Source: Vicinamibacteria bacterium
GTDB taxonomy: Bacteria > Acidobacteriota > Vicinamibacteria > Fen-336
Direction of reading: 5' to 3'
DNA: 64,000 bases
Assembly: GCA_016934575.1 (NCBI GenBank)
Contig: JAFGSN010000121.1
Span: 37,309-101,308, forward strand
Below the pieces are notes generated by a model. The model had not been told where the DNA came from. It was given only the letters and a program-made list of their open reading frames with translations, and did no database searches. The position numbers and the translations under genes are program-made. Every line of letters begins with the position of its first letter. Position 1 is the stretch's first letter. This document shows, piece by piece, positions 3,413 to 60,830 of this stretch.

Positions 3413-4100
3413 GAAATAGACTCAGTCTCGGCAACAGGTGCCGATCCAGCATCGTTCTCGCCAGGGACTCGTTCCGCACCTGCTCGATCACCTTTTCCGG
3501 CATGCGGTCACGATAGGGCGCGAGACGAAGCTCGACATCTTGCCGAACAAGCGCGCATTCCGCGGCCGTCATGTCGTCGCAAAGCGCCTTGACAAGCTCC
3601 GCTTCCTGTTTTTGGAGCCAGACATCGAGCTCAGCGGTCTCTCCCGGGCGCGCGACGCGCCGCTCGATAGTCGCGACGATCCGATCGCGCAGTCGCGCGG
3701 CGCGCGGGCCGAGTCCCTGCGCCGCGATGAGAGCCTGCGCGCGTAACGCGAGAAAGTCGGACACGCGCGCGCGTTCATGCGGTTCAAAGGAGAGAGCGCG
3801 ATGCCAATGACGCCGAGCCTGCTCGACTCCGGCGGCGCAATACCGCAGGCTCCTCACGCGATTGCCGCGGCTCCATGAGAGATCATGCGCATCCATGGCG
3901 TCGCGGACTCCCCGCAGCACGATTCGCAGCGGCACTCCGGCGCGACGCCATTTCCGTATCAGCAGCCATTCGGCGTTCGAAAGAAACAACGGATCGCCGC
4001 GGCGGCTCACGAAGTACTCCTGGATCGACTGATAGTAGTCGGCCTCGGGATCGATATCGGTCGCGAGCGTTTCCGCCCGATCGTGGCCCAAGAGACTCAT
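3402..4100 (-). CDS. conserved hypothetical protein (232 aa), embedded in the coaX-rlmD operon
   Basis: Full ORF with high third-position GC. Its ATG overlaps the coaX stop (ATGA) and its 3' end overlaps the rlmD start by 11 nt. I recognised no family. Confidence 0.45.
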   Translation of the reverse strand: MSLLGHDRAETLATDIDPEADYYQSIQEYFVSRRGDPLFLSNAEWLLIRKWRRAGVPLRIVLRGVRDAMDAHDLSWSRGNRVRSLRYCAAGVEQARRHWHRALSFEPHERARVSDFLALRAQALIAAQGLGPRAARLRDRIVATIERRVARPGETAELDVWLQKQEAELVKALCDDMTAAECALVRQDVELRLAPYRDRMPEKVIEQVRNESLARTMLDRHLLPRLSLFHGE

Positions 4101-4894
4101 CCTTGCTCGTCCGGCCGATTTCGCTCCCAGATGAGTCGCAGTCCCGTGAGCGTCAAAGTCGGATCCAGGACGTCGATGGCCTTGATCTCGGGCGCCAGAA
4201 TCTCGGACAATCCTCCCGTCGCCACGACTCGTACGGATTCGTTAAGCTCCGCGCGTATGCGCTTCAAGACGCCCGCCACCATCTCCGCGTAACCGTAATA
4301 CAATCCGGACCGGATCGCCCCCACCGTGTCATGACCGATCACCCGGCCAGGCCGACGGATCTCCACTCGCGGAAGTCGTTCCGCTCTTTGAAACAAGGCG
4401 TCGGCGCTGATAGAGATCCCCGGACAGATCACGCCGCCAACGTACTCGCCTTTGCGAGTGACGACGTCGAACGTCGTGGCCGTGCCGAAATCGACAATGA
4501 CAACCGGCCCGCCATGGACGGCGAAGGCCGCGACGGCGTTGACGATACGGTCGGCGCCAACGTCGCCTGGAGGCTCGTACAAGATCGATATGCCGGTCTT
4601 AACGCCGGGCTCAACGACGAGCGGCTCACGTAACAGATGACGACGACTGAGCTGTGCCATGGCCGGTGTCAGAGACGGCACGACGCTGGCAATGACGACG
4701 CCGGACAGCTCCTCGGGTCGATGGCCGGAGACGGCGAACAGATTTCGAAAGAGAATTCCGTATTCGTCGGCGGTCTGATCACGGCGGGTCGTCAGTCGCC
4801 AATGAGTCTCGAGTTCGCCCTTTTCGTGAAACCCCAGGACGGTATTCGTGTTGCCGATGTCCACGGTCAGAAGCAGGTTCGAGTCGTTCTTCAT
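4097..4894 (-). CDS. coaX: type III pantothenate kinase
   Basis: N-terminal LLTVDIGNTNT motif, an ASKHA-fold (actin-like ATPase) glycine motif (VVATGG), and ~265 aa length typical of CoaX. It overlaps birA by 4 nt. Confidence 0.85.
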   Translation of the reverse strand: MKNDSNLLLTVDIGNTNTVLGFHEKGELETHWRLTTRRDQTADEYGILFRNLFAVSGHRPEELSGVVIASVVPSLTPAMAQLSRRHLLREPLVVEPGVKTGISILYEPPGDVGADRIVNAVAAFAVHGGPVVIVDFGTATTFDVVTRKGEYVGGVICPGISISADALFQRAERLPRVEIRRPGRVIGHDTVGAIRSGLYYGYAEMVAGVLKRIRAELNESVRVVATGGLSEILAPEIKAIDVLDPTLTLTGLRLIWERNRPDEQG

Positions 4895-5736
4895 CGTCCG
4901 TCCTCGGCCGAGATTCGCAGTCGCCGCGCCTCGTCCGCGTACAACTTCCGCATTGAACCGTTTTGCAGACGAAGGATCAGCTCGCCCTGTTCGCCCAGAT
5001 CCTCCATCACGCCGACGACTCTCTTTTCTCCCGTATACGCCTCAACGAGGCGCCCCCACCAGTGAACGGAAAAGCGACGCCATTCCATGAGCATCTCTTC
5101 CGATTCGTTTCGCGCGAGAGCATCATAACATTCGGCCATCCGTGCCAGGACCGTGGCGGCCACGTCCAGGCGATCGTGCACGACACCAGCCTCATCACGA
5201 AGAGTCGTCGCCCGATCGATCGACGAAGACGAGTCGAAATCCGGCGCAAGTCTCACGTTCACTCCCGCGCCAAGGACGATACTGTCGAGTCCACGCGGGC
5301 TCATGACGCTCTCGGCCAGAAGACCGGCGATCTTGCGATCACCGACAAGCACGTCATTGGGCCATTTGAGCCGCGGCCGCAGGCCCAATTGCGTCAAAGC
5401 GCGGGCCACGGCGACGCCGCCGGTCAGTGGCACGAGAAACGGCCGCTCCGCGGCCCAATCGCCGCGAAGAAGCAAAGAAAGATAGACGTTTCCCGGCGGC
5501 GAGAACCAGACACGGCCCCGTCTTCCTGCGCCAGCCGTCTGCTCGTCCGCGATGACGACAGCGCGGTCAGGAGCGCCGGCGCGCGACCATTCCTTGAGCC
5601 GACGATTCGTCGAGTCGATGCGTCGATGGTGCTCGATAGGCGCGGGCCACCGCCTTTCGTTTCGATCGAGCAGCATGAGCAGCCGGCGAACCGTCGCGGA
5701 TTCTCCCGTCCCGCCTGAATAAGACGAGTCCGTCAT
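4891..5736 (-). CDS. birA: biotin--[acetyl-CoA-carboxylase] ligase (BirA, group I, no N-terminal HTH)
   Basis: BPL/LPL catalytic motifs (GAGRRGRVWFSPPGNVYLS, KWPNDV). The birA-coaX pairing is a common operon arrangement. Confidence 0.8.
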   Translation of the reverse strand: MTDSSYSGGTGESATVRRLLMLLDRNERRWPAPIEHHRRIDSTNRRLKEWSRAGAPDRAVVIADEQTAGAGRRGRVWFSPPGNVYLSLLLRGDWAAERPFLVPLTGGVAVARALTQLGLRPRLKWPNDVLVGDRKIAGLLAESVMSPRGLDSIVLGAGVNVRLAPDFDSSSSIDRATTLRDEAGVVHDRLDVAATVLARMAECYDALARNESEEMLMEWRRFSVHWWGRLVEAYTGEKRVVGVMEDLGEQGELILRLQNGSMRKLYADEARRLRISAEDGR

Positions 5737-5752
5737 CGGACCATGGGCCTTG

Positions 5753-6661
5753 TCAGATGGACGCGATTTCGAGCGACACGTCGACGGCCGGCGCCGAGTG
5801 CGTCAGCGCGCCGATTGCGATGAAATCCGGACCGGCTTCGGCGAACGACCGCACCGTCTCGAGCCTTATGCCGCCGGACACCTCGATCGGAACCCGCTGC
5901 GCCACCAGTCGCACCGCTTCGGCGACCAAAGCGGGGCTGAAGTTATCGAGCAGAATCATTTCCGCGCCCGCATCGAGCGCATGAACGACTTCGTCCATCC
6001 TCTCGACCTCCACCTCCACGATGAGGCCATGAGAACACGCCAGGGCGCGCCGCGTCGCCTCCTGCACCGATCCGGCCAGTCGGATGTGATTCTCCTTGAT
6101 GAGAATGCCGTCGTCGAGCCCTGAGCGGTGCGGCGCGCCTCCGCCCAACGCCACGGCATGCTTCTCCAGGGCGCGCAGAAGCGGCGTCGTCTTGCGCGTG
6201 TCGCGAATGACCGCTCCCGTTCCCGCCACGGCGTCAACGAAACGACGAGTGATCGTCGCGACTCCGCTCATCCGCTGGAGGAAATTCAGAGCCACTCTCT
6301 CAGCCGTGAGGATCGGCCGCGCGTTGCCCTGAACGCGAGCGACGACATCGCCCGCGCTCAATCGTTGTCCGTCGACGCAACAAGCCTCCCAGGCGACTTG
6401 AGGATCGAGCACCCGGAACACCGCATGCACGGTCTCAAGGCATGCCACGATCATGGGCTGATTGGCGATGATCTCGCCGCGCGCCTGAACATGCGGCGGC
6501 ACGGAAGCCTCGGTCGTCGTATCCTGACCGCCGACATCCTCATCGAGCGCGACGCGCACGAGGCGCTCGATCTGCTGCCGGTTCGGGCCTGGAAACGCGC
6601 CCGGGATGATGCCCAGTTCGCGCGGTTTGCTCATTTCTCTCATCCCGTCAGCCTCGAACAC
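5753..6661 (-). CDS. nadC: nicotinate-nucleotide pyrophosphorylase [carboxylating] (quinolinate phosphoribosyltransferase)
   Basis: QPRTase family features (LALGGGAPHRSGLDDGILIKENH, ILLDNFSP). The true start may be an internal Met in the first ~10 codons. Confidence 0.82.
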   Translation of the reverse strand: MFEADGMREMSKPRELGIIPGAFPGPNRQQIERLVRVALDEDVGGQDTTTEASVPPHVQARGEIIANQPMIVACLETVHAVFRVLDPQVAWEACCVDGQRLSAGDVVARVQGNARPILTAERVALNFLQRMSGVATITRRFVDAVAGTGAVIRDTRKTTPLLRALEKHAVALGGGAPHRSGLDDGILIKENHIRLAGSVQEATRRALACSHGLIVEVEVERMDEVVHALDAGAEMILLDNFSPALVAEAVRLVAQRVPIEVSGGIRLETVRSFAEAGPDFIAIGALTHSAPAVDVSLEIASI

Positions 6662-7563: not shown

Positions 7564-8196
7564 CTACTCTTCGGGCGACAGCTCCGCCAGAATCGATTCG
7601 CCGCCGTGAACGCGGTCGCCCAAGCCGACGAGTATGCGGGCGCGCACGGGCAGAAACACGTCGACGCGGCTTCCAAAGCGAATCATTCCGACGCGCTCGC
7701 CGCAATCGACGTTTTCTCCCAAACGTTTACGAAACACGATTCGACGCGCTATGATGCCCGCGATCTGCGCGAAGGCCACTCGCGTGACGCCGTTCTCCAA
7801 CGTCACAATGTTGCGCTCGTTCCTCTCAGACGCCGCGTGATCGAACGCCGGAAGAAACGATCCTTTGCGATACTCCACGCTTTTCACGCATCCGGCGATC
7901 GGCGCGCGATTGATATGTACGTCCAAAATCGAAAGGAAGATGGAGATCCTCCTCGCCGTCTCTCCCAGCGGGTTCTCGAAGCCGTCCTCCTCGATCCGCA
8001 CGATGCGGCCGTCGGCGGGCGACAGGACGAGGTCCGCGCGTTCGGGTATGCGTCTTTCCGGATCCCTGTAGAAATATGCGCACGCTGCGGCAAAGACAAG
8101 CGCGCCGCCGCCGATGATGGGACTGTAGTAGACAATAGCCAGTCCCAGTACCGCCGGTGGAACGATGAACCACAATCCTTCACGCGCTATCCGCAA
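7564..8196 (-). CDS. psd: phosphatidylserine decarboxylase proenzyme (short, archaeal/PSD-II type)
   Basis: 210-aa ORF with PSD family features. A membrane anchor is followed by FLSILDVHINRAPIAGCV and a GS cleavage-site region (YRKGSFLPA). Gene order is psd-pssA. Confidence 0.78.
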   Translation of the reverse strand: MRIAREGLWFIVPPAVLGLAIVYYSPIIGGGALVFAAACAYFYRDPERRIPERADLVLSPADGRIVRIEEDGFENPLGETARRISIFLSILDVHINRAPIAGCVKSVEYRKGSFLPAFDHAASERNERNIVTLENGVTRVAFAQIAGIIARRIVFRKRLGENVDCGERVGMIRFGSRVDVFLPVRARILVGLGDRVHGGESILAELSPEE

Positions 8197-8250
8197 TGGA
8201 ATTCTCCTCCTCTAAACGCCGATCGTCGGCTCGCATGCGACAGGTCGCGC

Positions 8251-8472
8251 TCAATGTCCCTGTGCATGACGCGCGATCGCCTCCATCCGGTCCTTGACCA
8301 GCAGTTTCTTCTTCTTCAACGTCGTCTCCTCGATCTGTTCTTCGTCCGTGAGCACCGCTTTCTGCACAAGCGCGGTCAGTCGGGACTCGTACTCTCGATG
8401 TTGCTCGCTCAGGCGCTGATATTCTTCGTGCCTGAGGAGCTCATCTTTGCCGGGGGCCAGATTCTCGGACAT
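8251..8472 (-). CDS. DUF465/YdcH family small coiled-coil protein
   Basis: ~73-aa ORF with the characteristic HEEYQRLSEQHREYE...LTDEE...KKKKLLVKDRME pattern. The family assignment is from memory. Confidence 0.5.
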   Translation of the reverse strand: MSENLAPGKDELLRHEEYQRLSEQHREYESRLTALVQKAVLTDEEQIEETTLKKKKLLVKDRMEAIARHAQGH

Positions 8473-8632
8473 GCGCACCTCCCTCCCGCCGGAGCGGTTG
8501 AGCGTTGAGCAAGAGACAGCGTGATTCCACTTTCTGGAGTCGGAAGCGACTTAGGAATCGCCCCATTAATGAAACGCTAGCATGTGCGCCCGCCGAATTC
8601 AAGGACATCTCATGACGCCATCGCCCGCCGAA

Positions 8633-9532
8633 TCAAGCGCGCGGATGGAAACGATCGTAGATGCGACGCAATCGCTCGCGAGTGACGTGCGTGTATATCT
8701 GCGTGGTCGAGATGTCCGCGTGGCCGAGCATGGCCTGCAAGGCGCGCAAATCCGCGCCCCGCTCGAGCAAGTGGGTCGCGAACGAGTGCCGCAGAACGTG
8801 CGGCGTCAGAATGTGCGCGACACCCGCGGACAACGCATGCCGTCTCACGATGCCCCATAACCCCATGCGGGACAACCGTCCGCCACGGCGGTTGAGAAAA
8901 AGCGCCGTTGACGACTTGCCGCAGGCGATTTGCCCTCGCGATTCGGACATATACCGCCGAATCCAACTCCGCGCAACGCTGCCGATCGGCACGAGCCTTT
9001 CCTTGCGTCCCTTGCCCAGGCAGGTCAGCACTCCCAACTCGAGATCAAGGTTTTCCGGCCGCAAATCGATGAGCTCTGACACACGCAGTCCGGTGGCATA
9101 CAGCAATTCGAGGATCGCCCGGTCGCGTATGCCCAGCCTCGTTCCAACGTCTGGCGCCGCCAGCAGCGCATCGATCTGTTCGATCGTGAGAAATCGAGGC
9201 AACGGCCGGAACGTTCGCGGCGCGCGAAGATTCTCCATCGGATCGTCATCCAGTCGTCCTTCACGTATTGCGAAGCGATACAACCCTCGCACGGCGTGCA
9301 CGACGCGCGCCGCCGAGCGCGGCGCCAGTCCGGAGACGCTCAGGCCGGCGATGAACTCGGTCAGGTCCGCTTGCCTGAGCTGCAAGACGTCACGACGACG
9401 AGAATCGGCGAAAGCCGTCAGCCGATCGAGATCACGACCATAAGCGTCCAGCGTATTGACGGCCAGCGCGCGCTCGATACGAAGGTGATTCAGATAATCG
9501 TGCTCTATGTGCGACGCATCGCGCCGATTCAT
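8633..9532 (-). CDS. xerD: site-specific tyrosine recombinase, XerD-like (chromosome dimer resolution)
   Basis: Xer N-terminal core-binding region (HLRIERALAVNTLDAYGRDL) plus catalytic R..HxxR..Y residues (LRHSFATHLLERGADLRALQAMLGHADISTTQIYTH). The ATG overlaps the murJ stop (ATGA). XerC and XerD cannot be distinguished from sequence alone. Confidence 0.7.
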   Translation of the reverse strand: MNRRDASHIEHDYLNHLRIERALAVNTLDAYGRDLDRLTAFADSRRRDVLQLRQADLTEFIAGLSVSGLAPRSAARVVHAVRGLYRFAIREGRLDDDPMENLRAPRTFRPLPRFLTIEQIDALLAAPDVGTRLGIRDRAILELLYATGLRVSELIDLRPENLDLELGVLTCLGKGRKERLVPIGSVARSWIRRYMSESRGQIACGKSSTALFLNRRGGRLSRMGLWGIVRRHALSAGVAHILTPHVLRHSFATHLLERGADLRALQAMLGHADISTTQIYTHVTRERLRRIYDRFHPRA

Positions 9533-11097
9533 TCCGGCGTCACCGTTTGACGCCGGCCATGCCGGCCCAGAAGCGCCATCACGACGCGCGCTTCAGGTAT
9601 GCGAAGCGCCAAAGCAGAAGCCAGGTACACGAAAACGCCGACGGCCACCGGCGCCGTTCCGGCGGCGATCTGCGCGAACAGACCGCCGGAGCCCCAAATG
9701 CCAACGCAGCCGCGTGCGGCGAGATGAACGCAGATGGCCATAACCGCGGCGGCCTGAGCCATGGCGAACGCCGCCTCGCCGAGGCCGGCGCCGCGCAAAC
9801 CTCCGACATGACGCTGAAAAGCGCACATCAGAACGCCGATATTCATGAAAGCCCCCACGCTCGTCCCCAGAGCGACGGCGGCGTATCCCATGATCGGGTA
9901 GCAGACCGCCATCACCGCGAGGCTCGTGGTCACGGCGGCCAGGCTGCCGAAAACAGGCAGGCGTGCGCGTTTCAGGCTGTAGAACGCCGGGACCACCACT
10001 TTCACGGCCGAGTATGCGACCAGCCCTATCGAATATACGAACAGAGCCAGGGAGGTTTTAGCGGTGTCCGCCGGCTGGTATCGGCCGTGTTCGAACAGCA
10101 TTCGAACGATCGGCTGCGCCAGGACCATCAATCCGGCGGTCGCCGGAATCGACACAAAGAACGCCATGCGCAGCGAGCGCCGCACGCATTGTCGCAATCC
10201 GTCGAGATCTCCCGCGGCGGCCTGACGCGCCGATTCCGCCGTCACCACTGTTCCGATCGCCACTCCAAAAAGGCCGATCGGCAGGTACAGGATGCGGAAG
10301 GCGTTCAACAGCCACGCTTGCGCCCCTTGCTCGTGTGACGCGAAATTGCTGCCGATGACGATATTGATTTCCACCGCCGCCAGCCCGATCGTGGCGGGCG
10401 CCATGAGCTTGAGAATCTGTCGTATGCGCGAGTCAAACGGCGCCCACTCGAATCGCGGCCGCCAGCCCAGCTTCAAGACGCCGGGGATCTGGATCGCCAA
10501 TTGCGCTAGCGCTCCAAGCAGCGCGCCGGCCGCCCATCCCATCACGACATGCCGGGGCGACAGCCCGAACCCCCACAGAGACACGCCGACGACGATCGCG
10601 ATGATGTTGAACATCGCCGGCGCAAAAGCCGGCGCTTCGTATCGCTGCTCTGTGTTCAGCACGCCCATCGTCACGGCCGCGAGAGAGACCAGCAGGAGAA
10701 ACGGCATCATGATGCGAGTCAGGAGAATCGTGAGCTCGGTCTTGCCGGTTATCCTCTCGAAGCCCGGAGCGAGAACATGAACAATGGCCGGCGCCGCCAG
10801 CCATCCCAACGCGATGAGCGCCGCCAGCGTTATTGTCAAGAGCGTCATCAGGCGCGCGATCAGCCGCTGGGCTTGCTCACGCCCGTCCTCCCGCAACGCG
10901 CACGCATAAGTCGGCGCCAGCGCGGCCGAGAGCGCTCCCTCCGCAAACAAATCGCGCAACAAGTTCGGAATCCGGAAGGCCACGAAAAAGGCGTCGGCAT
11001 GCATTCCCTGTCCGGCGCCGACCAGCGCCGCGAAAAGCTGATCGCGCGCCAGCCCCAGAACTCGCGACAGCAAGGTGAAACGCGAGATTCTACTCAC
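9529..11097 (-). CDS. murJ: lipid II flippase MurJ (MviN family)
   Basis: Polytopic MOP-superfamily protein with the MurJ N-terminus (SRISRFTLLSRVLGLARD). The track start at 11208 would overlap the divergent rpsT start and RBS. A GTG at 11097 gives the canonical MurJ N-terminus, so the exact start is uncertain. Confidence 0.78.
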   Translation of the reverse strand: MSRISRFTLLSRVLGLARDQLFAALVGAGQGMHADAFFVAFRIPNLLRDLFAEGALSAALAPTYACALREDGREQAQRLIARLMTLLTITLAALIALGWLAAPAIVHVLAPGFERITGKTELTILLTRIMMPFLLLVSLAAVTMGVLNTEQRYEAPAFAPAMFNIIAIVVGVSLWGFGLSPRHVVMGWAAGALLGALAQLAIQIPGVLKLGWRPRFEWAPFDSRIRQILKLMAPATIGLAAVEINIVIGSNFASHEQGAQAWLLNAFRILYLPIGLFGVAIGTVVTAESARQAAAGDLDGLRQCVRRSLRMAFFVSIPATAGLMVLAQPIVRMLFEHGRYQPADTAKTSLALFVYSIGLVAYSAVKVVVPAFYSLKRARLPVFGSLAAVTTSLAVMAVCYPIMGYAAVALGTSVGAFMNIGVLMCAFQRHVGGLRGAGLGEAAFAMAQAAAVMAICVHLAARGCVGIWGSGGLFAQIAAGTAPVAVGVFVYLASALALRIPEARVVMALLGRHGRRQTVTPE

Positions 11098-20319: not shown

Positions 20320-22437
20320 ATGCGATCCTCCCGCCGCGAGCGACTGATCGCCGTCATCACCGCATACGCCGTCATCACGATCGCCATGACCTGGCCGGTC
20401 GCCGCGCGTATCGCTCATGATCTTCCCGCCGATCTGGGGGATCCGGTGCTCAACTGCTGGATCCTCGCTTGGGACGCGGACCACATCGTCCGTTTCATTG
20501 GAGGTGAATGGGAGGCTTTTCGCGGCTACTGGAACGCCAATATCTTCCATCCCGAGCCGCTGGCTCTGGCCTACTCGGAGCATCTCACGGCGCAGGCGGT
20601 CCAGATCGCGATTCCGTACGCGCTCACGCGGAACCCCATCCTGTGCCACAACCTGCTTTTCCTCTCGACGTTCTTTCTGTCGGCGCTGGGCGCCTTTTTT
20701 CTCGTGCGCGAGCTTTCGGGCGACGATCGCGCGGCCTCGATCTCCGGGCTGCTCTATGGTTTCGGCCTTTATCGTTTCACGCAGCTACCGCACTTGCAGG
20801 TCCTGTCCGCTCAGTGGATGCCTTTCGTCCTTCTCGGTCTTCGTCTCTTTGTCCGAAAGCGCTCGCGTCTCGCGTTGGCATTTGGGTGCTCGGCCCTGAT
20901 CATGCAGAATCTCTCATGCGGCTATCATCTGATGTATTTCTCCCCTGTCGCCGCGATTTACGTTCTTTTTGAGATGACGATCCAGGGACGACTCCGGGAC
21001 CACCGCGTCTGGACTGATCTGATGATCGCCGGGCTGACGATCATCGCGTTGTCGCTGCCGTTTCTTCTTCCTTACCTCGAGCTTCACGCGCGGAACGGCA
21101 TCGTGCGCCGACTCTGGGAAGTCAAGCTCTTTTCGGCCGACGCCTACTCCTATCTCACGGCCAACTCGTATTCACGACTCTGGGGAGGCGTGATCAGGGC
21201 CTATTCCAAGCCGGAGGGCGCGCTTTTCCCCGGCCTCTCGATCCTGATGCTTGGCGCGCTTGCCGTGCTCGGAGAGCTCATCGAGGCGTTTCGTCATGAG
21301 CGCCGCTCGACGGCCGTCGCGCCGGCGCACGGATTGGTCGATTGGCGATCCGTGATCATCATCACGGCGTGCCTCGTCATGTTTCTTCATGCCGTCGGCG
21401 GTCTCATGATCGCGTTGGGAGCACGCGGCCGTTTTTACGGCATTAATCGGATCGTGCCGTTACGAGACTTCAATTTCAATCTCGCGGCAGTCGTCGTTTC
21501 CGTCATCGTTCTCTGGATGATATCGGAGAATACGCGTCGCATGGCGGCCCGGTTCTTCCGTTCCGGAGTCGGTTTTTCCGTTCTTGCCGCGGCAACGGCC
21601 TTGCTGCTCTCCTTGGGTCCGACAATGCATTCAAGGGGCGTCGCCTTTGGCGGCGGGCCATATGCATGGCTCTATGACTTCGTTCCCGGCTTCGACGGAT
21701 TGCGGGTGCCCGCGCGTTTCGCCTGGGTGTCGTTCCTTTTCCTCGTCATCCTGGCCGGCCATGGCTCGGCACGTTTGATGCGCCGGTTTCCGGGCGGATG
21801 TCGGACGGCCCTGATCACGACGACTCTCGGCTTTCTGATACTCTTCGAATCCTTCGCCGCGCCTCTGCCGATGAATCTGCCCTACTGGACCGGCATACGA
21901 AGAATGCTGCCTCGCCGTCTCGAAACCGGCCCGCATCCCGCGGGCGTCTATCGCGCAGTCGCCGCCCTTCCGGCCGATTCCGTCCTGGCCGAGCTGCCGT
22001 TTGGCGAGGCGGCCAGCGATCTGCGTTACATGTATTCCTCGACGTTCCATTGGCGAAAGCTGCTGAACGGCTTTAGCGGCGCGTTGCCTCCGCGTTATCC
22101 CAAGCTGGCGGCGGATCTGTCGGGCGCTCTACGGGATCCGAACCGCGCCTGGCACGCGCTTGAATGCTCTCCAGCGACGCACGTCGTCGTCCACGAAGGA
22201 TTCTGGGGCATCCGCCGCAAGGGACGGCGTCTCACACGATGGTTGATCGAGAACGGTTGCGTCATCGTCGCGCGCGAGGGAGACGACGCGTTGCTCGCGC
22301 TTCCGCGTCGAAACCCGGCGTTCGCGCCAACAAGACGTCGAACGGCCCTTCCCGTCAATCGTGTGTGGCAGAATGTCGAGGACGAACGGCTGGCGCGCCT
22401 TTTGGCGCTCAACGGATCCTTCGCCTTGATGGAGTAG
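20320..22437 (+). CDS. large polytopic integral membrane protein. It has 12 or more predicted TM segments and a ~170-aa hydrophilic C-terminal domain. It may be a GT-C-fold glycosyltransferase-like protein, but its family is unknown.
   Basis: 705-aa ORF with many hydrophobic helices. An acidic motif (HDLPADLGDP) sits in the first extracytoplasmic loop after TM1, as in GT-C enzymes. The stop lies 5 nt before the downstream methyltransferase gene. Confidence 0.5.
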   Translation: MRSSRRERLIAVITAYAVITIAMTWPVAARIAHDLPADLGDPVLNCWILAWDADHIVRFIGGEWEAFRGYWNANIFHPEPLALAYSEHLTAQAVQIAIPYALTRNPILCHNLLFLSTFFLSALGAFFLVRELSGDDRAASISGLLYGFGLYRFTQLPHLQVLSAQWMPFVLLGLRLFVRKRSRLALAFGCSALIMQNLSCGYHLMYFSPVAAIYVLFEMTIQGRLRDHRVWTDLMIAGLTIIALSLPFLLPYLELHARNGIVRRLWEVKLFSADAYSYLTANSYSRLWGGVIRAYSKPEGALFPGLSILMLGALAVLGELIEAFRHERRSTAVAPAHGLVDWRSVIIITACLVMFLHAVGGLMIALGARGRFYGINRIVPLRDFNFNLAAVVVSVIVLWMISENTRRMAARFFRSGVGFSVLAAATALLLSLGPTMHSRGVAFGGGPYAWLYDFVPGFDGLRVPARFAWVSFLFLVILAGHGSARLMRRFPGGCRTALITTTLGFLILFESFAAPLPMNLPYWTGIRRMLPRRLETGPHPAGVYRAVAALPADSVLAELPFGEAASDLRYMYSSTFHWRKLLNGFSGALPPRYPKLAADLSGALRDPNRAWHALECSPATHVVVHEGFWGIRRKGRRLTRWLIENGCVIVAREGDDALLALPRRNPAFAPTRRRTALPVNRVWQNVEDERLARLLALNGSFALME

Positions 22438-22441
22438 CCCT

Positions 22442-24550
22442 GTGATAAATCTTCGTTTTCTGCGCCGCCTCGTTCGACGAATGATGACGCAAGAAGGCCG
22501 CGATCGCTTGTCGGGGATGGCACGGCGCCTTGTCGACGACAAAAAGCCCGCGTACTCCGAAAGCGAGCTTCTCGCCCGCACCGAGGAGTTCAATCGCGCC
22601 GCCGAGGCTTACTGGAGAAGCATCGCCGCCGATCCGGCCGGCCGGTCACACGCTTTCAACAAGCCGTTCAGCACTGTCAAGGACACCGGCGCCATTCTTT
22701 ACCGATTAGGGCTCGTGCTGAACGAGCTGGATCTCGGAGTGGGTCATATCGTGCTCGATTTCGGCGCCGGAAGCTGTTGGCTCTCCGCATGCCTCAATCG
22801 CCTGCGCTGCCGGACGATTTCCGTCGAAATCAGCGAAACGGCGCTGTCGCTCGGCCGCGAGCTTTTCGCCACGGATTCCCGGCTCACGGCCGATTTCGAA
22901 CCCGTTTTTCTTCCTTATGACGGCCACCGTATCGACCTGCCCCCCGAGTCCGTCGATCGAATCGTATGCTTCGACGCCTTTCACCACGTGCCCAATCAGG
23001 ACGCGGTGCTCGCCGAGCTGTATCGTGTTCTCAGGCCGGGAGGCCGCGCGGTTTTCGCGGAACCCGGGGAAGGGCACGCCCACTCGAATCAATCGCTCTT
23101 CGAGAGCGAGAAAACCGGCGTCCTCGAGAACGATCTCGACATACGCGAAATCGCCGCCAAGGCCCGCAAGGTCGGCTTCAACCGCGTTCTCTTGAAGCCT
23201 TATCCCGATCCGTCGGCGATCACCGTGACGGCCGACGAGTATCAACGGCTGATTGAAGGCTCGCGTAGAATCTACCCGCTGGACGTCTTGCGCGACAATC
23301 TGCGCCACTTTTATCTCTTCGTGCTGACCAAGGGAGAGCCTCGCCACGACAGCCGTAATCCACGACGGCTTCAGTCGACGATCGACGTGAGCGCCGAGTC
23401 GTCCGTCCTGCGCGGGCCGGCGGGCGCGAAGCGGACGTTCCATGCGCGGATCCGCAACACGGGCGACACGCTCTGGCTGCATGCAATCCACCCCGCGGGA
23501 GGATACGTCGGCCTCGGCGGACATCTGCTCGACGACAAACGCGAGGTCCTCGTCAGAGGCTATACGCGCGCATCGCTGCCGCGTGACGTGCCGCCCGGCA
23601 AGTCGGTGGATCTCGACGTGGATGTCGATCTGCCCGAGCATCGCGGCCGTTACACTCTCCAGTTGGACATGGTCGACGAATGGATCGCCTGGTTCGAGCA
23701 GGAAGGATCAAAGACGACGGAGATCGCTCTCGTCGTCGACTCCTATCCTGACAGCCGCGCGCCGCATCGTCTGGCCGCGGCCATCGAGCTGCTCTCGCCG
23801 CCTCCCGGCGCGGCGGTGCGCCCGGGCTCTCCTCTTCGCATCACGCTCCGGCTGCGAAACACCGGCGACACCGCTTGGCTCAATGAACCGTTCGGCGAAT
23901 TCGGCGCAGTCGCCTTGGGCGCCAGCCTGCTCGACGAGCTGGGCGCCGTGCGCTCGCGAGATCTTGCCCGCATGCCGCTTCCGCGCCCCGTCGCTCCGGA
24001 TGAAGCCGTCATGATGGATCTGCGCTTTCCCGCTCCGCCGATCCCCGGGCGCTTTGTCATCAAACTCGATCTCGTCGACGAAGGCGTGTGCTGGTTCGAG
24101 CATCACGGATCACCGACTATCGCGATCGCGGTGCAGACGAATGACGAGGTTCCGGACAGCCTGGCGCCCGGCACGCTTCTGGCGCGCATCGAGCCGACGA
24201 TCGTCGAAAACGCGCTGCAAGCCAAGGCGTCGACCGCTCTATGCTTCCATGCGCATGTCACGAACATCGGCAATACCCTCTGGCTGAGCGCTTTGAAACC
24301 GAGCCGGGGATACGTCGGCCTCGGCGCGCACCTCCGCAACGCCGACTTCGAGACGGTCGAGATGGATTTCTTGCGAGTCATGCTGCCTCGGGACGTTCCG
24401 CCGGGCGAGAGCGTCGACCTCGAATGTCGTTTCACCACCCCTCGAGAACCGGGCCGCTATGTGCTCGAGTTGGACATGGTGAACGAGCACATGTGCTGGT
24501 TCGCCGATCATGGTTCGGCTGTCGTTGGAATCGAGCTAAAAGTAAGCTGA
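22442..24550 (+). CDS. multidomain protein: N-terminal class I SAM-dependent methyltransferase followed by three tandem ~110-aa Ig-like repeat domains of unknown family
   Basis: MTase motif I (VLDFGAGSCW) and post-I/II motifs (VCFDAFHHV, LRPGGRAVFAEP). These are followed by three repeats, each carrying the signature N-[TI]-G-[DN]-T-x-W-L...G...LPR.V.P[GD]...DL...P...GR[YF]V..LD[ML]V.E..CWF..HGS. Confidence 0.55.
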   Translation: MINLRFLRRLVRRMMTQEGRDRLSGMARRLVDDKKPAYSESELLARTEEFNRAAEAYWRSIAADPAGRSHAFNKPFSTVKDTGAILYRLGLVLNELDLGVGHIVLDFGAGSCWLSACLNRLRCRTISVEISETALSLGRELFATDSRLTADFEPVFLPYDGHRIDLPPESVDRIVCFDAFHHVPNQDAVLAELYRVLRPGGRAVFAEPGEGHAHSNQSLFESEKTGVLENDLDIREIAAKARKVGFNRVLLKPYPDPSAITVTADEYQRLIEGSRRIYPLDVLRDNLRHFYLFVLTKGEPRHDSRNPRRLQSTIDVSAESSVLRGPAGAKRTFHARIRNTGDTLWLHAIHPAGGYVGLGGHLLDDKREVLVRGYTRASLPRDVPPGKSVDLDVDVDLPEHRGRYTLQLDMVDEWIAWFEQEGSKTTEIALVVDSYPDSRAPHRLAAAIELLSPPPGAAVRPGSPLRITLRLRNTGDTAWLNEPFGEFGAVALGASLLDELGAVRSRDLARMPLPRPVAPDEAVMMDLRFPAPPIPGRFVIKLDLVDEGVCWFEHHGSPTIAIAVQTNDEVPDSLAPGTLLARIEPTIVENALQAKASTALCFHAHVTNIGNTLWLSALKPSRGYVGLGAHLRNADFETVEMDFLRVMLPRDVPPGESVDLECRFTTPREPGRYVLELDMVNEHMCWFADHGSAVVGIELKVS
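23414..24541 (+). repeat. three in-frame tandem intragenic repeats (~330-400 nt each) encoding the repeated Ig-like domains of the MTase-repeat protein
   Basis: Repeat units at roughly 23414-23737, 23804-24136 and 24215-24541. Repeats 1 and 3 share exact 20-mers (for example gggatacgtcggcctcggcg) and a parallel cgcaacacgggcgacacgctctggctg-like segment. Confidence 0.6.
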
Positions 24551-24691: not shown

Positions 24692-25243
24692 TCAGAGACG
24701 GCGTTTCATGCGCGCGGACGCGCGTCGAACCGCCGGTTTGCTCTCCAGCAGTCGCTCGATCTGGACAAGATGGTTCAGATCGTGCGCCGCCTCCATCGTC
24801 ACGAACTCCGCGACCGTCTGGCGGCCGCGCTTTTCGTGAACGCCGTATGACGACTGCCAGACTTGCCTGGGCACCGCTTTCAACAACGCGAGATTGCTTT
24901 CGCGCAGAACGCGGAAAACCGTCACGGAGCGCCGTGGATCACTCCACGCGTAATTGCACTTCTCCGACCAAAGATGCTCATCCCACCACTGAAGCCGAAC
25001 GCCGGGGGTCGCCAGCATGTTACGAAACCGCCAGCCCATCGCCAATTCGGAGTCGGCCAGATGCGCGAGAATCTCGACGATCGACCACTTTCCCGGCGCC
25101 GGCCGGCGATCGAGCTTTCTGCGGGGAATGCCACGAATCAACCGTTCAAGTCTCGTGGGCGTGGCTTGAAGCAGCCGGATCGGGTCGCGGTCTTTCAAGT
25201 ATCCCAACACCCGTATCCGGTACTCCTCGATGGTTTCAGGCAT
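24692..25243 (-). CDS. DinB/YfiT-like (DinB_2 family) putative metal-dependent hydrolase
   Basis: 183 aa with a four-helix-bundle signature (WSIVEILAHLADSE...HDLNH). It is convergent with the MTase-repeat gene. Confidence 0.6.
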   Translation of the reverse strand: MPETIEEYRIRVLGYLKDRDPIRLLQATPTRLERLIRGIPRRKLDRRPAPGKWSIVEILAHLADSELAMGWRFRNMLATPGVRLQWWDEHLWSEKCNYAWSDPRRSVTVFRVLRESNLALLKAVPRQVWQSSYGVHEKRGRQTVAEFVTMEAAHDLNHLVQIERLLESKPAVRRASARMKRRL

Positions 25244-25395: not shown

Positions 25396-25965
25396 ATGTC
25401 AGACAACAGCGCCGAGGCGGAGTTGTTGGTGAGGGCCAGTCGCGGGGATGAGACCGCGTTTCTCGTCATTTATGAGCGTCACTGTCACTCCATTTTTCGC
25501 TTTGCATATCGCTTGCTGGGATCCGTACAACTCGCGGAGGACGTCACGCACGACTGCTTCCTGGCGCTCCTTCGCCGGCCGGAAGGCTATCAAGCGGAAC
25601 GCGCATCCTTGCGGACATACCTCTGCGCGGCGACGCGAAACCTGGCGTTTCGTCTGCTGCGCAAACGCGGCGTCGAGACTCTGGTTGACGATGTCCCCGA
25701 ACCGCCGTCCTCGAATCGCACGCCCGAGCAGCTACGCAATCTTCTTGGCGACGAAATCATCCAGACGGTGCGGCAGGCCGTCGAAGCGCTGCCGCCTCTC
25801 CAGAGAGAAGCGTTGATTCTCTTCGAATACGAGGACCTGAGCCTGGCGGAAATCGCGCAAATCACTGAATCCGACGTCGGAACGGTGAAATCCCGCTTGC
25901 ATCGCGCTCGCCAACGCCTACGCCGCCGACTCGGACCATTATGCGCCCGGCCATCGATGGATTGA
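25396..25965 (+). CDS. RNA polymerase ECF-type sigma-70 factor
   Basis: 189 aa with region 2 (FRFAYRLLGSVQLAEDVTHDCFLALL) and region 4 (LSLAEIAQITESDVGTVKSRLHRARQRLR). Confidence 0.82.
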   Translation: MSDNSAEAELLVRASRGDETAFLVIYERHCHSIFRFAYRLLGSVQLAEDVTHDCFLALLRRPEGYQAERASLRTYLCAATRNLAFRLLRKRGVETLVDDVPEPPSSNRTPEQLRNLLGDEIIQTVRQAVEALPPLQREALILFEYEDLSLAEIAQITESDVGTVKSRLHRARQRLRRRLGPLCARPSMD

Positions 25966-25980
25966 ACGGAGATCAAGGTC

Positions 25981-26418
25981 ATGAAAGACGAGAAAACGAG
26001 AACTGCCGGCGAAAGAGAAGACATGGAGCATGATGATCCCGAGATCCGGCGGCTTCTGCGTCTCTGGGAATCGCCCGCCGTGACGTCGGAACTCAACGCG
26101 CGCGTCAGGGAAAGCTTCCGGCGACAGACCGCCGCGGCGACATACTGGCGGCGGCTCTTCGCGATATCGATACCGGTTCCTCTGCCGGTCGCCGCGCTCG
26201 TTCTGATCATGCTCCTGTTGTCGGCGACGTTCGCCTTGCGCAATCAATCAAAAGCGACGCAAGACGTTTCTCCGCTCGTCGAGGCCAGACTCACGGCGCA
26301 AAGCTCCGCGCCCGACATGAAGAACGACGCCCCCGTGGTGACTCGTACAAGCTTGGCCGGATTCGAGCCCGTGACCGATATGAATGTGGCCGTCGTCCCG
26401 GAGATCAGTATGCGATGA
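25981..26418 (+). CDS. putative single-pass anti-sigma factor
   Basis: 145 aa, 15 nt after the sigma gene. An N-terminal cytoplasmic helix region is followed by one TM helix (ISIPVPLPVAALVLIMLLLSATFAL). The stop overlaps the next gene's start (ATGA). Confidence 0.5.
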   Translation: MKDEKTRTAGEREDMEHDDPEIRRLLRLWESPAVTSELNARVRESFRRQTAAATYWRRLFAISIPVPLPVAALVLIMLLLSATFALRNQSKATQDVSPLVEARLTAQSSAPDMKNDAPVVTRTSLAGFEPVTDMNVAVVPEISMR

Positions 26419-27593
26419 ATCGAGCCCTCCTCTTCTCCGGATTCCTGGGCGCGAGTCTTGCGCAAGGGGCGGCTTTCTGCGCCAGCGGGCATTACGCCTT
26501 TGCCACGCTCGAGAACGGCGCCCATGTCGGTTTCGCGCTTCTCCGGACCGGAACCGCGAGCTCAACCACCATGATGGGGGAAGTCTCTTTGCCGCGCTCG
26601 AACGGCGTGAGCCGCGTCTTGGTGGACGAGAAAAGCCGCACCTACTTCGGTTATCGGCTCGAAGTCGAACTGAAGAATCGATCCGTATTCAAGGTCAGCG
26701 TCCAACCGCTGGCTTCCGACCTGGCGAAGGATCTGCGACGAATGTTCCCGTGCGAAAACTGCCCGCTCCCCAGTCTGCTCGCCCCAATTCCGCGAATTCC
26801 CGCGCCGCGCGTCGTCTCCGACGGAGACGTGTTCACTCTCGATCTGCTCGTGAATCCCAAGACGCAGGAAAAGATCATCGACATCGTCAAGATTTCGAAA
26901 TCTCCCATCAACGTCGAGACGATGAAGGTTTCATCGTCCAAAATCAGCGAGTCATTACGCGCGGTCAAAGACGCGGAGATCCACATGCTGGCCGGCCGAT
27001 ACACGAACGCGGTCAAGGAGTTCAAGAAAGCGTTGGACATCTACTCCGAAGACGCCATCGTTCACAACAAACTCGGCATTTGTCACCAGCGCAGCCAACG
27101 CATCAACGATGCTGAGCGTGCGTTCAAGGAAGCTTTGAAGATCAACCCGGATTATGCCGAGGCGTGGAACAACCTCGGCGCCCTCGATCATGGCCGGGGT
27201 GATTACAAACAAGCAATCAAGCATTATAAAAAGGCGCTTGCCGTCAAGGCCGATTTCGCGACGGCCTACAGGAACATGGGAACCGCGTATTTCGCTCTTC
27301 AACGCTTCGAGGAAGGATACGAAGCGTATCAGACCGCTTATCGCGTCGATCCCACGATCCTCGATGCCACCGCGACGATGCCCGTTGATGGAAGCCGCGA
27401 GTCGATTGCGATGCAATGCTTTTACGTCGCCAAGATCGCTGCGGCGAACGGCCAGACCAAAACGGCGCTTTTCTTCCTGCACAAGGCCGTGGAAGTAGGC
27501 TTCAAGGACTTCAAGCGGCTCAAGCGTGACCCGGACTTCAAGTCGGTCGTCGCGGATCCCCGCTTCAAACAACTCGTCGAGGAATCGAAGTAG
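26415..27593 (+). CDS. secreted TPR-repeat protein. An N-terminal signal peptide and Cys-containing domain are followed by 3-4 C-terminal TPR motifs.
   Basis: Signal peptide MNRALLFSGFLGASLAQGAAFC. TPR consensus residues appear in aa ~200-330 (AEAWNNLGALDHGRGDYKQAIKHYKKALAVKADFATAYRNMGTAYF). GC is lower than in neighbouring genes. Confidence 0.6.
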   Translation: MNRALLFSGFLGASLAQGAAFCASGHYAFATLENGAHVGFALLRTGTASSTTMMGEVSLPRSNGVSRVLVDEKSRTYFGYRLEVELKNRSVFKVSVQPLASDLAKDLRRMFPCENCPLPSLLAPIPRIPAPRVVSDGDVFTLDLLVNPKTQEKIIDIVKISKSPINVETMKVSSSKISESLRAVKDAEIHMLAGRYTNAVKEFKKALDIYSEDAIVHNKLGICHQRSQRINDAERAFKEALKINPDYAEAWNNLGALDHGRGDYKQAIKHYKKALAVKADFATAYRNMGTAYFALQRFEEGYEAYQTAYRVDPTILDATATMPVDGSRESIAMQCFYVAKIAAANGQTKTALFFLHKAVEVGFKDFKRLKRDPDFKSVVADPRFKQLVEESK

Positions 27594-57939: not shown

Positions 57940-58527
57940 ATGCGTCTAACAATACTCGCCGCGATATCGATCGCCATGCTTGCGGATGGAAGCGCAGCGT
58001 CCGAGGGCGATAGACTCGGCCTCAATATCGAGGCTGGCTCACGCACGTCCGTGGGCGTTACGTATCGAGCACATGAGAGGTTGGCATTACGTCCTTCGAT
58101 CACGTTCCAGTGGCTGCAAGCTGACAATGTTCCAACCTACATCGACCCCAATGAGGACTACCCCGTATTCAAGACAACAGAAAGAGTGCTTCAAGCGGGA
58201 ATCGGGGCGCTTTTTTATGCATTCCCCACAAACGACCATGGCATCCGCCCCTATATCGGCATCGATCTTTATCTGGGACATCAGAATCTACCGTATCAAA
58301 TAATGATCGATGGCGCCATCGTCTATCGCAATGGATCGCTTCATCAGATGTCCACACGAGGCTTTCTCGGTATGCAGCTCCCCCTTGTTCGGCGCATCTG
58401 TCTTTACGGAGAATTGGGAACCGAGTACTCGAAGCGAGAGCGTTTTGGGTACGGCGGAAAAAAGCTGGATATTCAGTATTTCGGCAGCTTCACATCCGGA
58501 ATTGGCGTCATCCTTTTTGTTTTCTAA
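57940..58527 (+). CDS. small outer-membrane beta-barrel protein (OmpW/OmpA-like 8-strand family)
   Basis: Signal peptide MRLTILAAISIAMLADGSAAS, alternating amphipathic beta-strands, and a C-terminal Phe. GC is lower (~48%). Confidence 0.55.
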   Translation: MRLTILAAISIAMLADGSAASEGDRLGLNIEAGSRTSVGVTYRAHERLALRPSITFQWLQADNVPTYIDPNEDYPVFKTTERVLQAGIGALFYAFPTNDHGIRPYIGIDLYLGHQNLPYQIMIDGAIVYRNGSLHQMSTRGFLGMQLPLVRRICLYGELGTEYSKRERFGYGGKKLDIQYFGSFTSGIGVILFVF

Positions 58528-58617
58528 AGTAGATTCTCTAAGATTAGTTCTATTTTCTACGCCTTAAAGTATGATTAATATTAACTTTATTCCGAAAAAC
58601 ATGATGTAAAGGTTGAG

Positions 58618-59463
58618 CTATTCTTCAAGTTTTTCTTGAGAAAGATTATCAATCACACTCTGTAGAATCCGAATGATCTCGCCTCGCTCAACCTCTGATT
58701 TACGAAAATGGACTGAAAGCCGGAATGATTTCTCCTGAGGTTGAAAATGAAACACATAGTTCTTGGGTCTGCCACGAGTAACGCCTTTTATCTGCTTCTT
58801 AATATGCCTGGCTTTCTCTCGTGTCAGCGGACCCTGTTGAAGTTGCTCGACGAGAGCGATCATTTCCTGTGGCGATTTCTGCCTAACAACCTGTAATAAC
58901 AACGACTTAGTCCGAATGTCGGCCAGCCGACATAGCTCTCTGACTTCATCCGGCATTCCGGAGATTGCCAGGGTCTCTGTAATCGACGTTCGGCTCTTAC
59001 CGATCTTTTCGGCAATCATCTCGTGGGTATAACCAAACCTGTCCGCAAGAGCCTTGAGTCCATCCGCCTCTTCAAACGGTTCGAGATCCTTCCTCTGAAG
59101 ATTCTCGACAAGAGCTAACTCCATCACTTCCGCGTCCGAGCTGGATCGTATAACGCACGGTATCTCGGCGAGGCTGGCATCAACGGCAGCGCGATAGCGT
59201 CTCTCGCCGGCAATGATCTGGTATCGACTACCGATTGGACGGACGATGATGGGCTCGATAACGCCCTTCTCCCGGATGGATTCTGTGAGCTCTGTAAGAT
59301 CTCCAAAACCTTGCCTGGGCTGTGTTGGATTGGGATCAATATCCTCAATGGGTAACAGTCGACCAATGGGATGTCCATTCGGGCGGGTTAATTGGTCGAC
59401 GAAGTGCAAATCGTGCCTCATTCTTTTGGCATCTGGTAAACCGATACGACGCGCGCTAGACAC
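58618..59463 (-). CDS. parB: chromosome partitioning protein ParB (Spo0J)
   Basis: ParB box (GVIEPIIVRP...YQIIAGERRYRAA) and an HTH. A GTG at 59463 gives MSSARRIGLPDAKRM..., a ParB-like N-terminus, with GAGGAGG 9 nt upstream and an 8-nt overlap with parA. The track ORF is over-extended to 59661. Confidence 0.8.
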   Translation of the reverse strand: MSSARRIGLPDAKRMRHDLHFVDQLTRPNGHPIGRLLPIEDIDPNPTQPRQGFGDLTELTESIREKGVIEPIIVRPIGSRYQIIAGERRYRAAVDASLAEIPCVIRSSSDAEVMELALVENLQRKDLEPFEEADGLKALADRFGYTHEMIAEKIGKSRTSITETLAISGMPDEVRELCRLADIRTKSLLLQVVRQKSPQEMIALVEQLQQGPLTREKARHIKKQIKGVTRGRPKNYVFHFQPQEKSFRLSVHFRKSEVERGEIIRILQSVIDNLSQEKLEE

Positions 59464-60217
59464 GTTCAATGACCTCCTCACAGAGGCGATAATACTCATA
59501 TGCACCACTCGACTGGGGTGCAAAGGTGAATATCGTTTCCCGATGTGCCGGACTCTCTTCGAGACGGATGCTCCGACTGATGATCGTTTCAAAAACACGA
59601 TCACCAAAGACATCGGCGATGGACTTCTGCACGTCACGAGACAACGTCGTACGCTTGTCATGCAACGTGATCAGCGCACCGAGAAGCTTGAGCTGCGGAT
59701 TGGGACGCGAACGGATTCTGTCAATCGTTTCAAGGAGATCGTCCGTACCTTCAAGCGCGAAGTAACTGGACTGAACGGGTATCAGGAGATGTGTCGCAGC
59801 CACGAGTGCATTCACGGTGATCAGGCCAAGGGCCGGCGGCGTGTCAATGATCACGAAATCGTACTGATCCTTAATGGACTCGAGACAATCCTTGAGTCGA
59901 AAATGGCCGTCGATTTCTCCAATGAGCTTGGCCTCGAGTTTGGCAAGCGATATCCTGGAAGGGGATAGATAAAGCTTGTCAATCGTTGTCGGGATGATGA
60001 TGCCGGAGAGAGGCATGCCATCCGCGAGCACCTCATACATCGTTCGATCGACAGCATGCGGCTCAACAAAGGTGATCGTCGAATTCGCCTGGGGATCCAG
60101 ATCGATGAGAAGGGTCCTCTGCCCGCGCATCCCCAAGGCGGCAGCGAGGTTGATCGCTGTCGTGGTCTTACCCACGCCTCCCTTCTGATTGGCGATGGCG
60201 ATGATTATCAAGGACAC
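59456..60217 (-). CDS. parA: chromosome partitioning ATPase ParA (Soj)
   Basis: Deviant Walker A motif IAIANQKGGVGKTTTAINLAAAL in a 253-aa ORF. Confidence 0.88.
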   Translation of the reverse strand: MSLIIIAIANQKGGVGKTTTAINLAAALGMRGQRTLLIDLDPQANSTITFVEPHAVDRTMYEVLADGMPLSGIIIPTTIDKLYLSPSRISLAKLEAKLIGEIDGHFRLKDCLESIKDQYDFVIIDTPPALGLITVNALVAATHLLIPVQSSYFALEGTDDLLETIDRIRSRPNPQLKLLGALITLHDKRTTLSRDVQKSIADVFGDRVFETIISRSIRLEESPAHRETIFTFAPQSSGAYEYYRLCEEVIERV

Positions 60218-60292
60218 CTCACTAGGCTCGGATTGTAAAGCAGGCGCATCATATGAAAGCTAAGAACCAACGTCAAGGGAAACAGGACGAAC

Positions 60293-60778: not shown

Positions 60779-60830
60779 TCAATACTCCTCATGACTGACG
60801 TCAGAAATATAGGTCGCAGAAAGAAACGTG

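Follow-up and report, generated by a model that had tools for sequence, protein, structure and literature searches.

The window analysed here comprises 64,000 nucleotides (nt) of contig JAFGSN010000121.1 from a Vicinamibacteria bacterium, and its subject is a real gene located on the plus strand at 22442..24550. The open reading frame (ORF) list, the Pfam search and the NCBI match indicate that it encodes a protein of 702 amino acids (aa), in which an N-terminal methyltransferase (MTase) domain is followed by three tandem FW modules (Pfam family PF16158). The protein is identical (100%) to the NCBI entry 'MAG: methyltransferase domain-containing protein [Vicinamibacteria bacterium]' (P0001; MAG, metagenome-assembled genome). 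The GTG start of the ORF is credible judging by the alignment, because 69 of the 84 full-length aligned homologues begin at the same position. A Shine-Dalgarno-like motif, GGAG, lies 7 nt upstream of it (22431..22434, plus strand), within the 3' end of the preceding gene. ORFs that overlap the MTase gene in antisense, such as the one at 22706-23641 on the minus strand, were treated as shadow ORFs of DNA with a high guanine-cytosine (GC) content.

The methyltransferase domain and the location of the protein

Pfam, AlphaFold and the homologues delimit a class I Rossmann-fold domain with a helical cap, dependent on S-adenosylmethionine (SAM), at aa ~40-300 (22559..23341, plus strand). The Pfam model Methyltransf_11 matches aa 105-205 with an E value of 3e-17 and 63.3 bits against a cut-off of 21.2; Methyltransf_25 scores 52.5 bits against a cut-off of 27, and four sister models match besides Methyltransf_11. 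The AlphaFold model shows alternating strands and helices, with predicted local distance difference test (pLDDT) values above 90 over aa 40-300. A fold search with this model against the PDB returned 1,356 matches at E ≤ 0.001, and all the top ones are MTases. In the SAM-binding motif I, VLDFGAGSCW (aa 104-113; 22751..22780, plus strand), D106 and G110 are invariant across 84 homologues. A profile score above the cut-off, the glycine-rich motif I and a seven-stranded Rossmann-like fold place the N-terminal domain in class I. An earlier note on this DNA, made from the sequence alone, had recognized the class I domain, and the Methyltransf_11 match and motif I bear it out. By sequence and model, the protein is a class I SAM-dependent MTase of the 'Methyltransf_11' type, resembling RebM, AtmM, MitM and phosphoethanolamine MTases (PMTs), and methyl transfer is its predicted activity.

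The second motif of the domain, CFDAFHHVPN, is invariant among the homologues, including D178, H181, H182, P184 and N185 (22973..22996 on the plus strand for D178 to N185). In the alignments, D178 and H182 correspond to the Asp and His of PMT-2, and MitM has its His at the position of H182. In PfPMT, the matching residues are D128 and H132, mutants of which are among the PDB entries listed by the fold search; these residues and their RebM counterparts act as a base or relay. The invariant Asp...His-His motif probably supplies the general base for O- or N-methylation, as these alignments suggest, and it fits either reaction without identifying the acceptor.

The nearest solved MTases are small-molecule O- and N-MTases (PMTs, TleD, AtmM/RebM and MitM) with 15-22% identity; Hvo_0019 is also listed. 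No NCBIfam model matched at its cut-off, the best being that of the DVU_1556 family with 32 bits against 155, and BioC- and UbiE-type models were among the hits. Such relatives would suit a small-molecule or lipid MTase, with a phospho-base, a quinone-type or a natural-product-like compound as its substrate; the FW modules would then serve only to oligomerise, scaffold or regulate the enzyme, the kind of role proposed for XRE-FW regulators. We consider this rather unlikely, though by no means negligible. Conservation within the protein is highest in the MTase domain (mean identity to homologues 63%), with 42-48% in the repeats and 58% in the linkers. One to three conserved, position-orthologous β-sandwiches joined by linkers of such conservation would be heavy equipment for a small substrate.

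The full-length AlphaFold model (pLDDT 93.5, predicted template modelling score 0.78) consists of the Rossmann domain and three β-sandwiches, preceded at aa 1-39 by a basic helical N-terminus of low confidence (pLDDT 64-67). AlphaFold, net charge and conservation distinguish the first ~35 residues (22442..22546, plus strand) as a basic amphipathic helical segment. The net charge of the segment is +7 in the window protein; in the family, the first ~32 residues are always strongly basic (median +6), although poorly conserved (23% identity). The maximal hydrophobic moment is 0.62 here compared with 0.23 elsewhere in the protein. No hydrophobic segment was found, the maximal 19-residue Kyte-Doolittle mean being 1.33 and located in motif I, and there is neither a signal peptide nor a transmembrane segment. 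Because of this, and because the enzyme needs SAM, the protein is predicted to be cytoplasmic and soluble. The earlier note had supposed an envelope-associated substrate; given the predicted location, the enzyme could encounter any such substrate only at the inner membrane face.

The N-terminal helix may equally be a peripheral membrane anchor or a nucleic-acid-binding tail. The consistently basic charge of this arginine-rich tail would agree with an RNA or nucleic-acid MTase that binds its substrate through it. This function is very unlikely: no high-ranking similarity to rRNA or tRNA MTase families was found, the protein has no RNA-binding domain, and a basic amphipathic helix suits peripheral membrane binding just as well.

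The FW repeats and the age of their triplication

Pfam, AlphaFold and position-specific hidden Markov models (HMMs) define the FW/N_BRCA1_IG repeats as R1 (aa 312-434; 23375..23743), R2 (aa 446-566; 23777..24139) and R3 (aa 581-701; 24182..24544), all on the plus strand. Successive repeats start 402 and 405 nt (134-135 aa) apart, and each unit consists of a domain of ~120 aa and a conserved DS(R/L)xPxxL linker, so the length of ~110 aa given in the earlier note needs correction. The presence of three tandem repeats, claimed there as well, is evident from pairwise BLASTP (E values of 3e-28, 2e-37 and 7e-25; 35-43% aa identity). The first motif of the repeats reads NTGDTLWL, NTGDTAWL and NIGNTLWL, and the second reads LPRDVPPGKSV, LPRPVAPDEAV and LPRDVPPGESV in the three copies, respectively. 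The third motif, GRY..LDMVDE..WF..GS, is present with variants in all three, with substitutions in R2 and R3.

The earlier note could assign the repeats to no known family. Searched as a whole, the protein scores 52.3 bits against a cut-off of 28 with PF16158 (N_BRCA1_IG, 'Ig-like domain from next to BRCA1 gene') of Pfam, in three stretches; the best single stretch lies within R2, at aa 455-547. The Pfam comparison proposed in that note thus leads to an annotated domain. Among 33 single repeat units taken from 11 family members, 28 matched PF16158 at E ≤ 0.1, with the best E value of 7e-7, each alone being below the 28-bit cut-off (R1, 19.3 bits). NPCBM_assoc and Wzt_C matched two of the 33 units each. 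The Ig-like β-sandwich suggested in the earlier note is confirmed by the full-length AlphaFold model, and the model of one repeat has a pLDDT of 95.2; the resemblance to CARDB or NPCBM-associated NEW3 domains that it mentioned was not borne out by Pfam, the NPCBM_assoc/NEW3 matches being weak.

A Foldseek search of the single repeat against the PDB gave the FW domain of human NBR1 (4ole) as the top match (E 1.3e-4, 20-21% identity), and the FW domain of ILRUN (6vhi) was also listed. The repeat profile was used in an exhaustive HMMER search against 1.84 billion representatives, which revealed 13,526 proteins at E ≤ 0.001; the longest arrays among them contain 14 copies. All 40 sampled proteins proved to be strong PF16158 members (best E 1.3e-119). 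The consensus of their repeats, NTG..TW ... R..LP.DVAPG..V ... AP...G.Y.L..DLV.EGV.WF...G., is the signature that the earlier note had derived from the window; all three of its motifs do occur in every copy, with the substitutions mentioned above, and it is essentially that of bacterial PF16158. The link to FW was drawn from Pfam, the fold search and the transitive profile search, because a sequence-profile search against PDB chains gave just ILRUN at E 1.1 and spurious CCT-epsilon matches. On these sequence and model comparisons, the repeats belong to the known PF16158/FW family.

The alignment of bacterial PF16158 contains three Trp-rich columns. The window repeats keep two of them, namely the Trp that follows NTG and that of WF; in the third, Leu takes its place. 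Judged by these three columns, the four-Trp FW signature is present in them only in part. Judging by sequence, the window repeats are a divergent subfamily of PF16158. Another homologous-protein search with the repeat profile yielded short gene fragments only and no new architectures, and no further PF16158 repeats or MTase paralogues were detected within the window. Elsewhere, PF16158 arrays occur in proteins of up to 2,829 aa, fused to subtilase, Amidase_2, discoidin, PKD, CopC, GSDH, SpoIID and cohesin domains. From the NBR1 literature, one would expect the bacterial FW domain to be far less abundant, and less often extracytoplasmic, than it is.

As for the age of the triplication, the earlier note had inferred a recent intragenic duplication from 20-nt exact blocks shared by the repeats. 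A single exact block of 19 nt was found, between R1 and R3 (23501-23519 and 24308-24326), and the longest string common to either of the other pairs is 12 nt. The block encodes the conserved GYVGLG, and a 19-nt match arises by chance in ~0.3-3% of simulated 400-nt aligned pairs with 55-65% identity; it is no evidence of recency. Nucleotide identity between the repeats is 47-54%, and identity at third codon positions is 36-42%. Tandem Repeats Finder detected no DNA-level array, and a DNA repeat search gave blocks of 62-76% identity only. Therefore, with low nucleotide identity and no array, the DNA shows no sign of recent duplication.

When compared with HMMs built separately for R1, R2 and R3 of other species, excluding the window protein and its two closest relatives, R1, R2 and R3 of the window score best against the HMM of their own position (166.8, 144.4 and 139.3 bits), whereas other positions give 113-132 bits. 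Because each repeat best matches the same-position repeat of other species, the three-module form is, by sequence comparison, the result of an ancient duplication, older than the split of lineages that are now ~45-55% identical. The two-repeat relatives consist of R1-R2; R3 is the one that they are without.

A picture along the lines of the earlier note would place a novel family of Ig-like adhesion or carbohydrate-binding modules, triplicated recently, on an enzyme located in the envelope; it has hardly any chance of being correct. It does find the Ig-like fold, the weak NPCBM_assoc/NEW3 matches in two of the 33 repeats and the PF16158 arrays on secreted or cell-wall enzymes (subtilases, Amidase_2, discoidin, PKD, SpoIID) on its side. 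However, the family is a known one, the duplication is ancient, the architecture is widespread, the protein has no signal peptide or transmembrane segment, and its SAM dependence favours the cytoplasm.

Distribution of the family and the window locus

A word-indexed search for relatives of the 702-aa protein found 938 cluster representatives at E ≤ 1e-5. A species scan, with one genome taken per species, revealed relatives in at least 146 species genomes. Most of them are Vicinamibacteria and Thermoanaerobaculia; others are Chloroflexota, Rokubacteriota, Myxococcota, Burkholderiales, Desulfovibrio, Verrucomicrobiota and one Clostridia MAG. The genomic environment was compared at 81 loci, which carry 90 family ORFs. 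A first ORF set, which missed some loci, contained 74 of the 90 ORFs: 46 with one, 13 with two and 12 with three FW modules, as well as three partial ORFs without a repeat. The MTase-FW family is under purifying selection, ancient and widespread, and it is centred on Acidobacteriota.

No experimental characterisation of the MTase-FW architecture was found in the literature searched. No MTase fusion is mentioned in the FW-domain literature examined, and searches on PF16158/N_BRCA1_IG returned eukaryotic NBR1 papers only. The architecture is thus uncharacterised, as the earlier note had it, and also common. Both of its parts are known, and their fusion is abundant and generically annotated in databases; new is only that the combination is undescribed.

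A variant form is found in Thermoanaerobaculia, in which two MTase domains, the additional one at the N-terminus, are followed by one FW module (locus L068, 7176-9182, plus strand, and six similar loci). Its two MTase domains recall the di-domain PMTs, which would agree with a small-molecule substrate. A small STAS-domain gene follows this variant in seven loci, and an isoamylase/CBM48 gene is located nearby in six. In an Acidobacteria MAG (L084), one-repeat MTase-FW paralogues stand in tandem at 8010-9218 and 9336-10556 (plus strand), and a third, weaker relative is encoded at 4002-5756 on the opposite strand.

In the window, the MTase gene starts 4 nt after a gene for a polytopic membrane protein of 705 aa with ~9 hydrophobic segments, placed by the ORF list at 20320..22437 on the plus strand (stop codon TAG, 22435-22437). 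Because of this spacing, and because no terminator-like or promoter-like site was found between the two genes, their co-transcription is likely, and they may be translationally coupled. Neither Pfam nor NCBIfam assigns the membrane protein to a family. Its relatives, a very large group annotated as 'hypothetical proteins', number 2,131 hits; since a few of them match DUF6311 or YfhO, it is possibly GT-C-like by sequence. As a conserved functional partner it was rejected, since the HMM of its family matches neighbours of the MTase gene only in the window and at one other locus (L004), and distant MTase homologues are located elsewhere. The strongly negative AT skew at 20-22 kb (-0.286) is likewise accounted for by this gene.

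Farther upstream, murJ, holA, leuS, accA and dnaE represent an ordinary chromosome. Downstream are the genes of a DinB_2 protein (24692-25243, minus strand), an ECF sigma factor (25396-25965, plus strand) and a TPR protein (26415-27593, plus strand), followed in the list by MshEN and EAL genes. The order of the first three is kept in L004, where a YCII gene and an ORF of 144 aa, possibly an anti-sigma factor, are added between the sigma factor and TPR genes. At 58000-62000 of the window, the GC content falls from ~0.62 to ~0.50. The genes of this region, all on the minus strand, are located at 58618-59661, 59456-60217, 60293-60778, 60831-62165 and 62182-63864; the products include those of parB, parA, a bifunctional-nuclease-domain gene, a MiaB-like radical-SAM methylthiotransferase gene and a RecN-like SMC gene. 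Since the listed ORFs of parA and parB share ~200 nt, one of them has probably been given a start too far upstream.

Gene neighbourhoods, possible substrates and known systems

The commonest neighbour family at the 81 loci is that of GT4 glycosyltransferases, found in 12 of them. The GT4 gene directly adjoins the family gene in one Vicinamibacteria lineage, a Desulfovibrio MAG and bacterium UASB14. When the two flanking genes on either side were counted by Pfam family (277 proteins), there were Glycos_transf_1 in 11 proteins and scattered GSCFA, WcbI, Capsule_synth, ManC, polysaccharide deacetylase, hexapeptide transferase and AlgX-like matches, amid many unrelated housekeeping families. At three Burkholderiales loci (L042, from Piscinibacter/Ideonella sakaiensis 201-F6, L053 and L057), a one-repeat relative is part of a co-directional operon with an ABC-2 (Wzm-like) permease, a GT4 enzyme, ManC and a WcbI+GSCFA protein, a gene set by which ABC-transporter-dependent glycan assembly is recognised. 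PMT_2 GT-C genes adjoin two three-repeat relatives; others adjoin MoaC, Peptidase_M15/DUF179 or transhydrogenase genes. Large polytopic membrane neighbours were tried as a general GT-C theme and rejected as heterogeneous (SSF, DctM, LptFG, FtsX and one weak TMEM260-like match). The glycan theme recurs in independent lineages but in a minority of loci, and it is not universal; the window locus is without an ABC transporter or glycosyltransferase cluster.

We tentatively favour the reading that the protein is a cytoplasmic O-MTase acting on a glycan or another large substrate held by its FW modules, which appears possible rather than probable. The FW modules would be non-catalytic binding or spacing modules that keep a large substrate or partner beside the active site. 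The most likely substrate would be a glycan under assembly on the cytoplasmic face of the membrane, whose sugar hydroxyls would be methylated as a modification or a cap. The parallel, in logic and not in ancestry, would be the cytoplasmic methyl-capping and β-sandwich cap recognition of ABC-transporter-dependent O-antigen pathways.

Several observations weigh against a glycan substrate. All-against-all clustering of the neighbours at the 81 loci showed no conserved operon partner, none being above 12 of 81, and most loci lie amid unrelated housekeeping genes. The enrichment of GT4 comes partly from one lineage and is without a proper genome-wide background. The adjacency of membrane protein and MTase genes is limited to the window and L004, whose relative is 76% identical. 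To our knowledge, no FW domain has been shown to bind carbohydrate, and we know of no ligand of any bacterial FW domain. The experimentally known FW ligands are all proteins or peptides, namely the N-terminal tail of Ams1, MAP1B and TAX1BP1 (PMC9233695, PMC3357945, PMC9582228).

These ligands are also what would suggest a protein MTase. Its FW modules would bind a partner or substrate protein, perhaps by an N-terminal tail like that of Ams1 in its complex with Nbr1, and offer it to the MTase domain. The predicted cytoplasmic location and the structural neighbour Hvo_0019, which belongs to the Trm112-activated MTase group, would agree with such a role. It is nevertheless unlikely: none of the 81 loci contains a conserved neighbour gene that could encode a dedicated substrate, the MTase domain resembles small-molecule O/N-MTases more than known protein Lys/Arg/Gln MTases, and eukaryotic FW domains are only remote relatives, with ILRUN at E 1.1 by sequence profile.

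The metabolic and housekeeping character of most genomic contexts can be explained by a small-molecule substrate as well. The proposal of Marchbank et al. 2012 (PMC3357945) that FW domains of bacteria dimerise or bind small ligands would also suit it. On the other hand, no biosynthetic gene cluster context was seen, and glycan genes recur in several lineages.

If the favoured glycan reading were extended to the whole family, FW modules would be cytoplasmic glycan-binding or length-measuring modules, and MTase-FW proteins an unrecognised, widespread class of polysaccharide-modifying or chain-capping MTases dominant in Acidobacteriota. This extension is doubtful; if true, polymer recognition would be the ancestral bacterial role of FW, later recruited into the eukaryotic autophagy receptor NBR1. 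Acidobacteriota are abundant soil bacteria known for extracellular polysaccharides, and in them MTase-FW could point to an unstudied methylation step of glycan assembly. For the present, the finding amounts to an annotation that is right but generic, a methyltransferase with a known Ig-like domain, and to no new kind of system. A large conserved family of cytoplasmic enzymes with one to three FW modules is at the same time a tractable bacterial system for asking what FW binds, and one member is encoded in an ABC-transporter glycan operon of a cultured species, Piscinibacter/Ideonella sakaiensis.

When compared with known enzymes, the N-terminal domain shares the Rossmann fold and helical cap with the sugar O-MTases RebM and AtmM, with MitM and TleD, and with phosphoethanolamine N-MTases, which are its best sequence and structure matches. 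Unlike the window protein, these are without Ig-like modules, and at 15-22% identity their substrates are not transferable. The catalytic residues of PfPMT are D128, H132 and Tyr19. The protein was not filed as a PMT: although D178 and H182 align with the Asp and His of PMT-2, the identity is ~17%, and no curated family threshold was reached.

In ABC-transporter-dependent O-antigen synthesis, the chain is capped with methyl or methyl-phosphate in the cytoplasm by WbdD-type enzymes (PMC3482155; PMC11231755), and a cytoplasmic β-sandwich domain of Wzt reads the cap (PMC9445017). WbdD has a coiled-coil molecular ruler and, in O9a, a kinase domain beside the MTase; in comparison, the window protein has no coiled coil in the AlphaFold model and no kinase match in Pfam. 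The analogy is one of logic without homology. A location in a Wzm/Wzt cluster, typical of WbdD, was found only for the distant one-repeat relatives L042, L053 and L057 and not for the window locus. Wzt_C (PF14524) has Pfam matches to two of the 33 repeats, at E ≥ 0.026.

Bacterial FW proteins are characterised by a tandem arrangement and near-C-terminal placement of their modules (PMC3357945), and MTase-FW is like bacterial PF16158 arrays in these two features and in the repeat consensus. The sampled bacterial arrays mostly accompany secreted or cell-wall-type domains (Peptidase_S8, Amidase_2, F5/8-C, PKD, CARDB), whereas the MTase fusion is cytoplasmic and enzymatic. XRE-FW proteins, in turn, are transcription factors, unlike the MTase-FW enzyme. 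What FW domains do outside eukaryotic autophagy receptors has been called enigmatic (PMC9233695). Eukaryotic FW domains are single, protein-binding copies in autophagy receptors; compared with those of NBR1 (4OLE), ILRUN (6VHI) and C. thermophilum Nbr1, the window protein contains three tandem copies fused to a bacterial enzyme.

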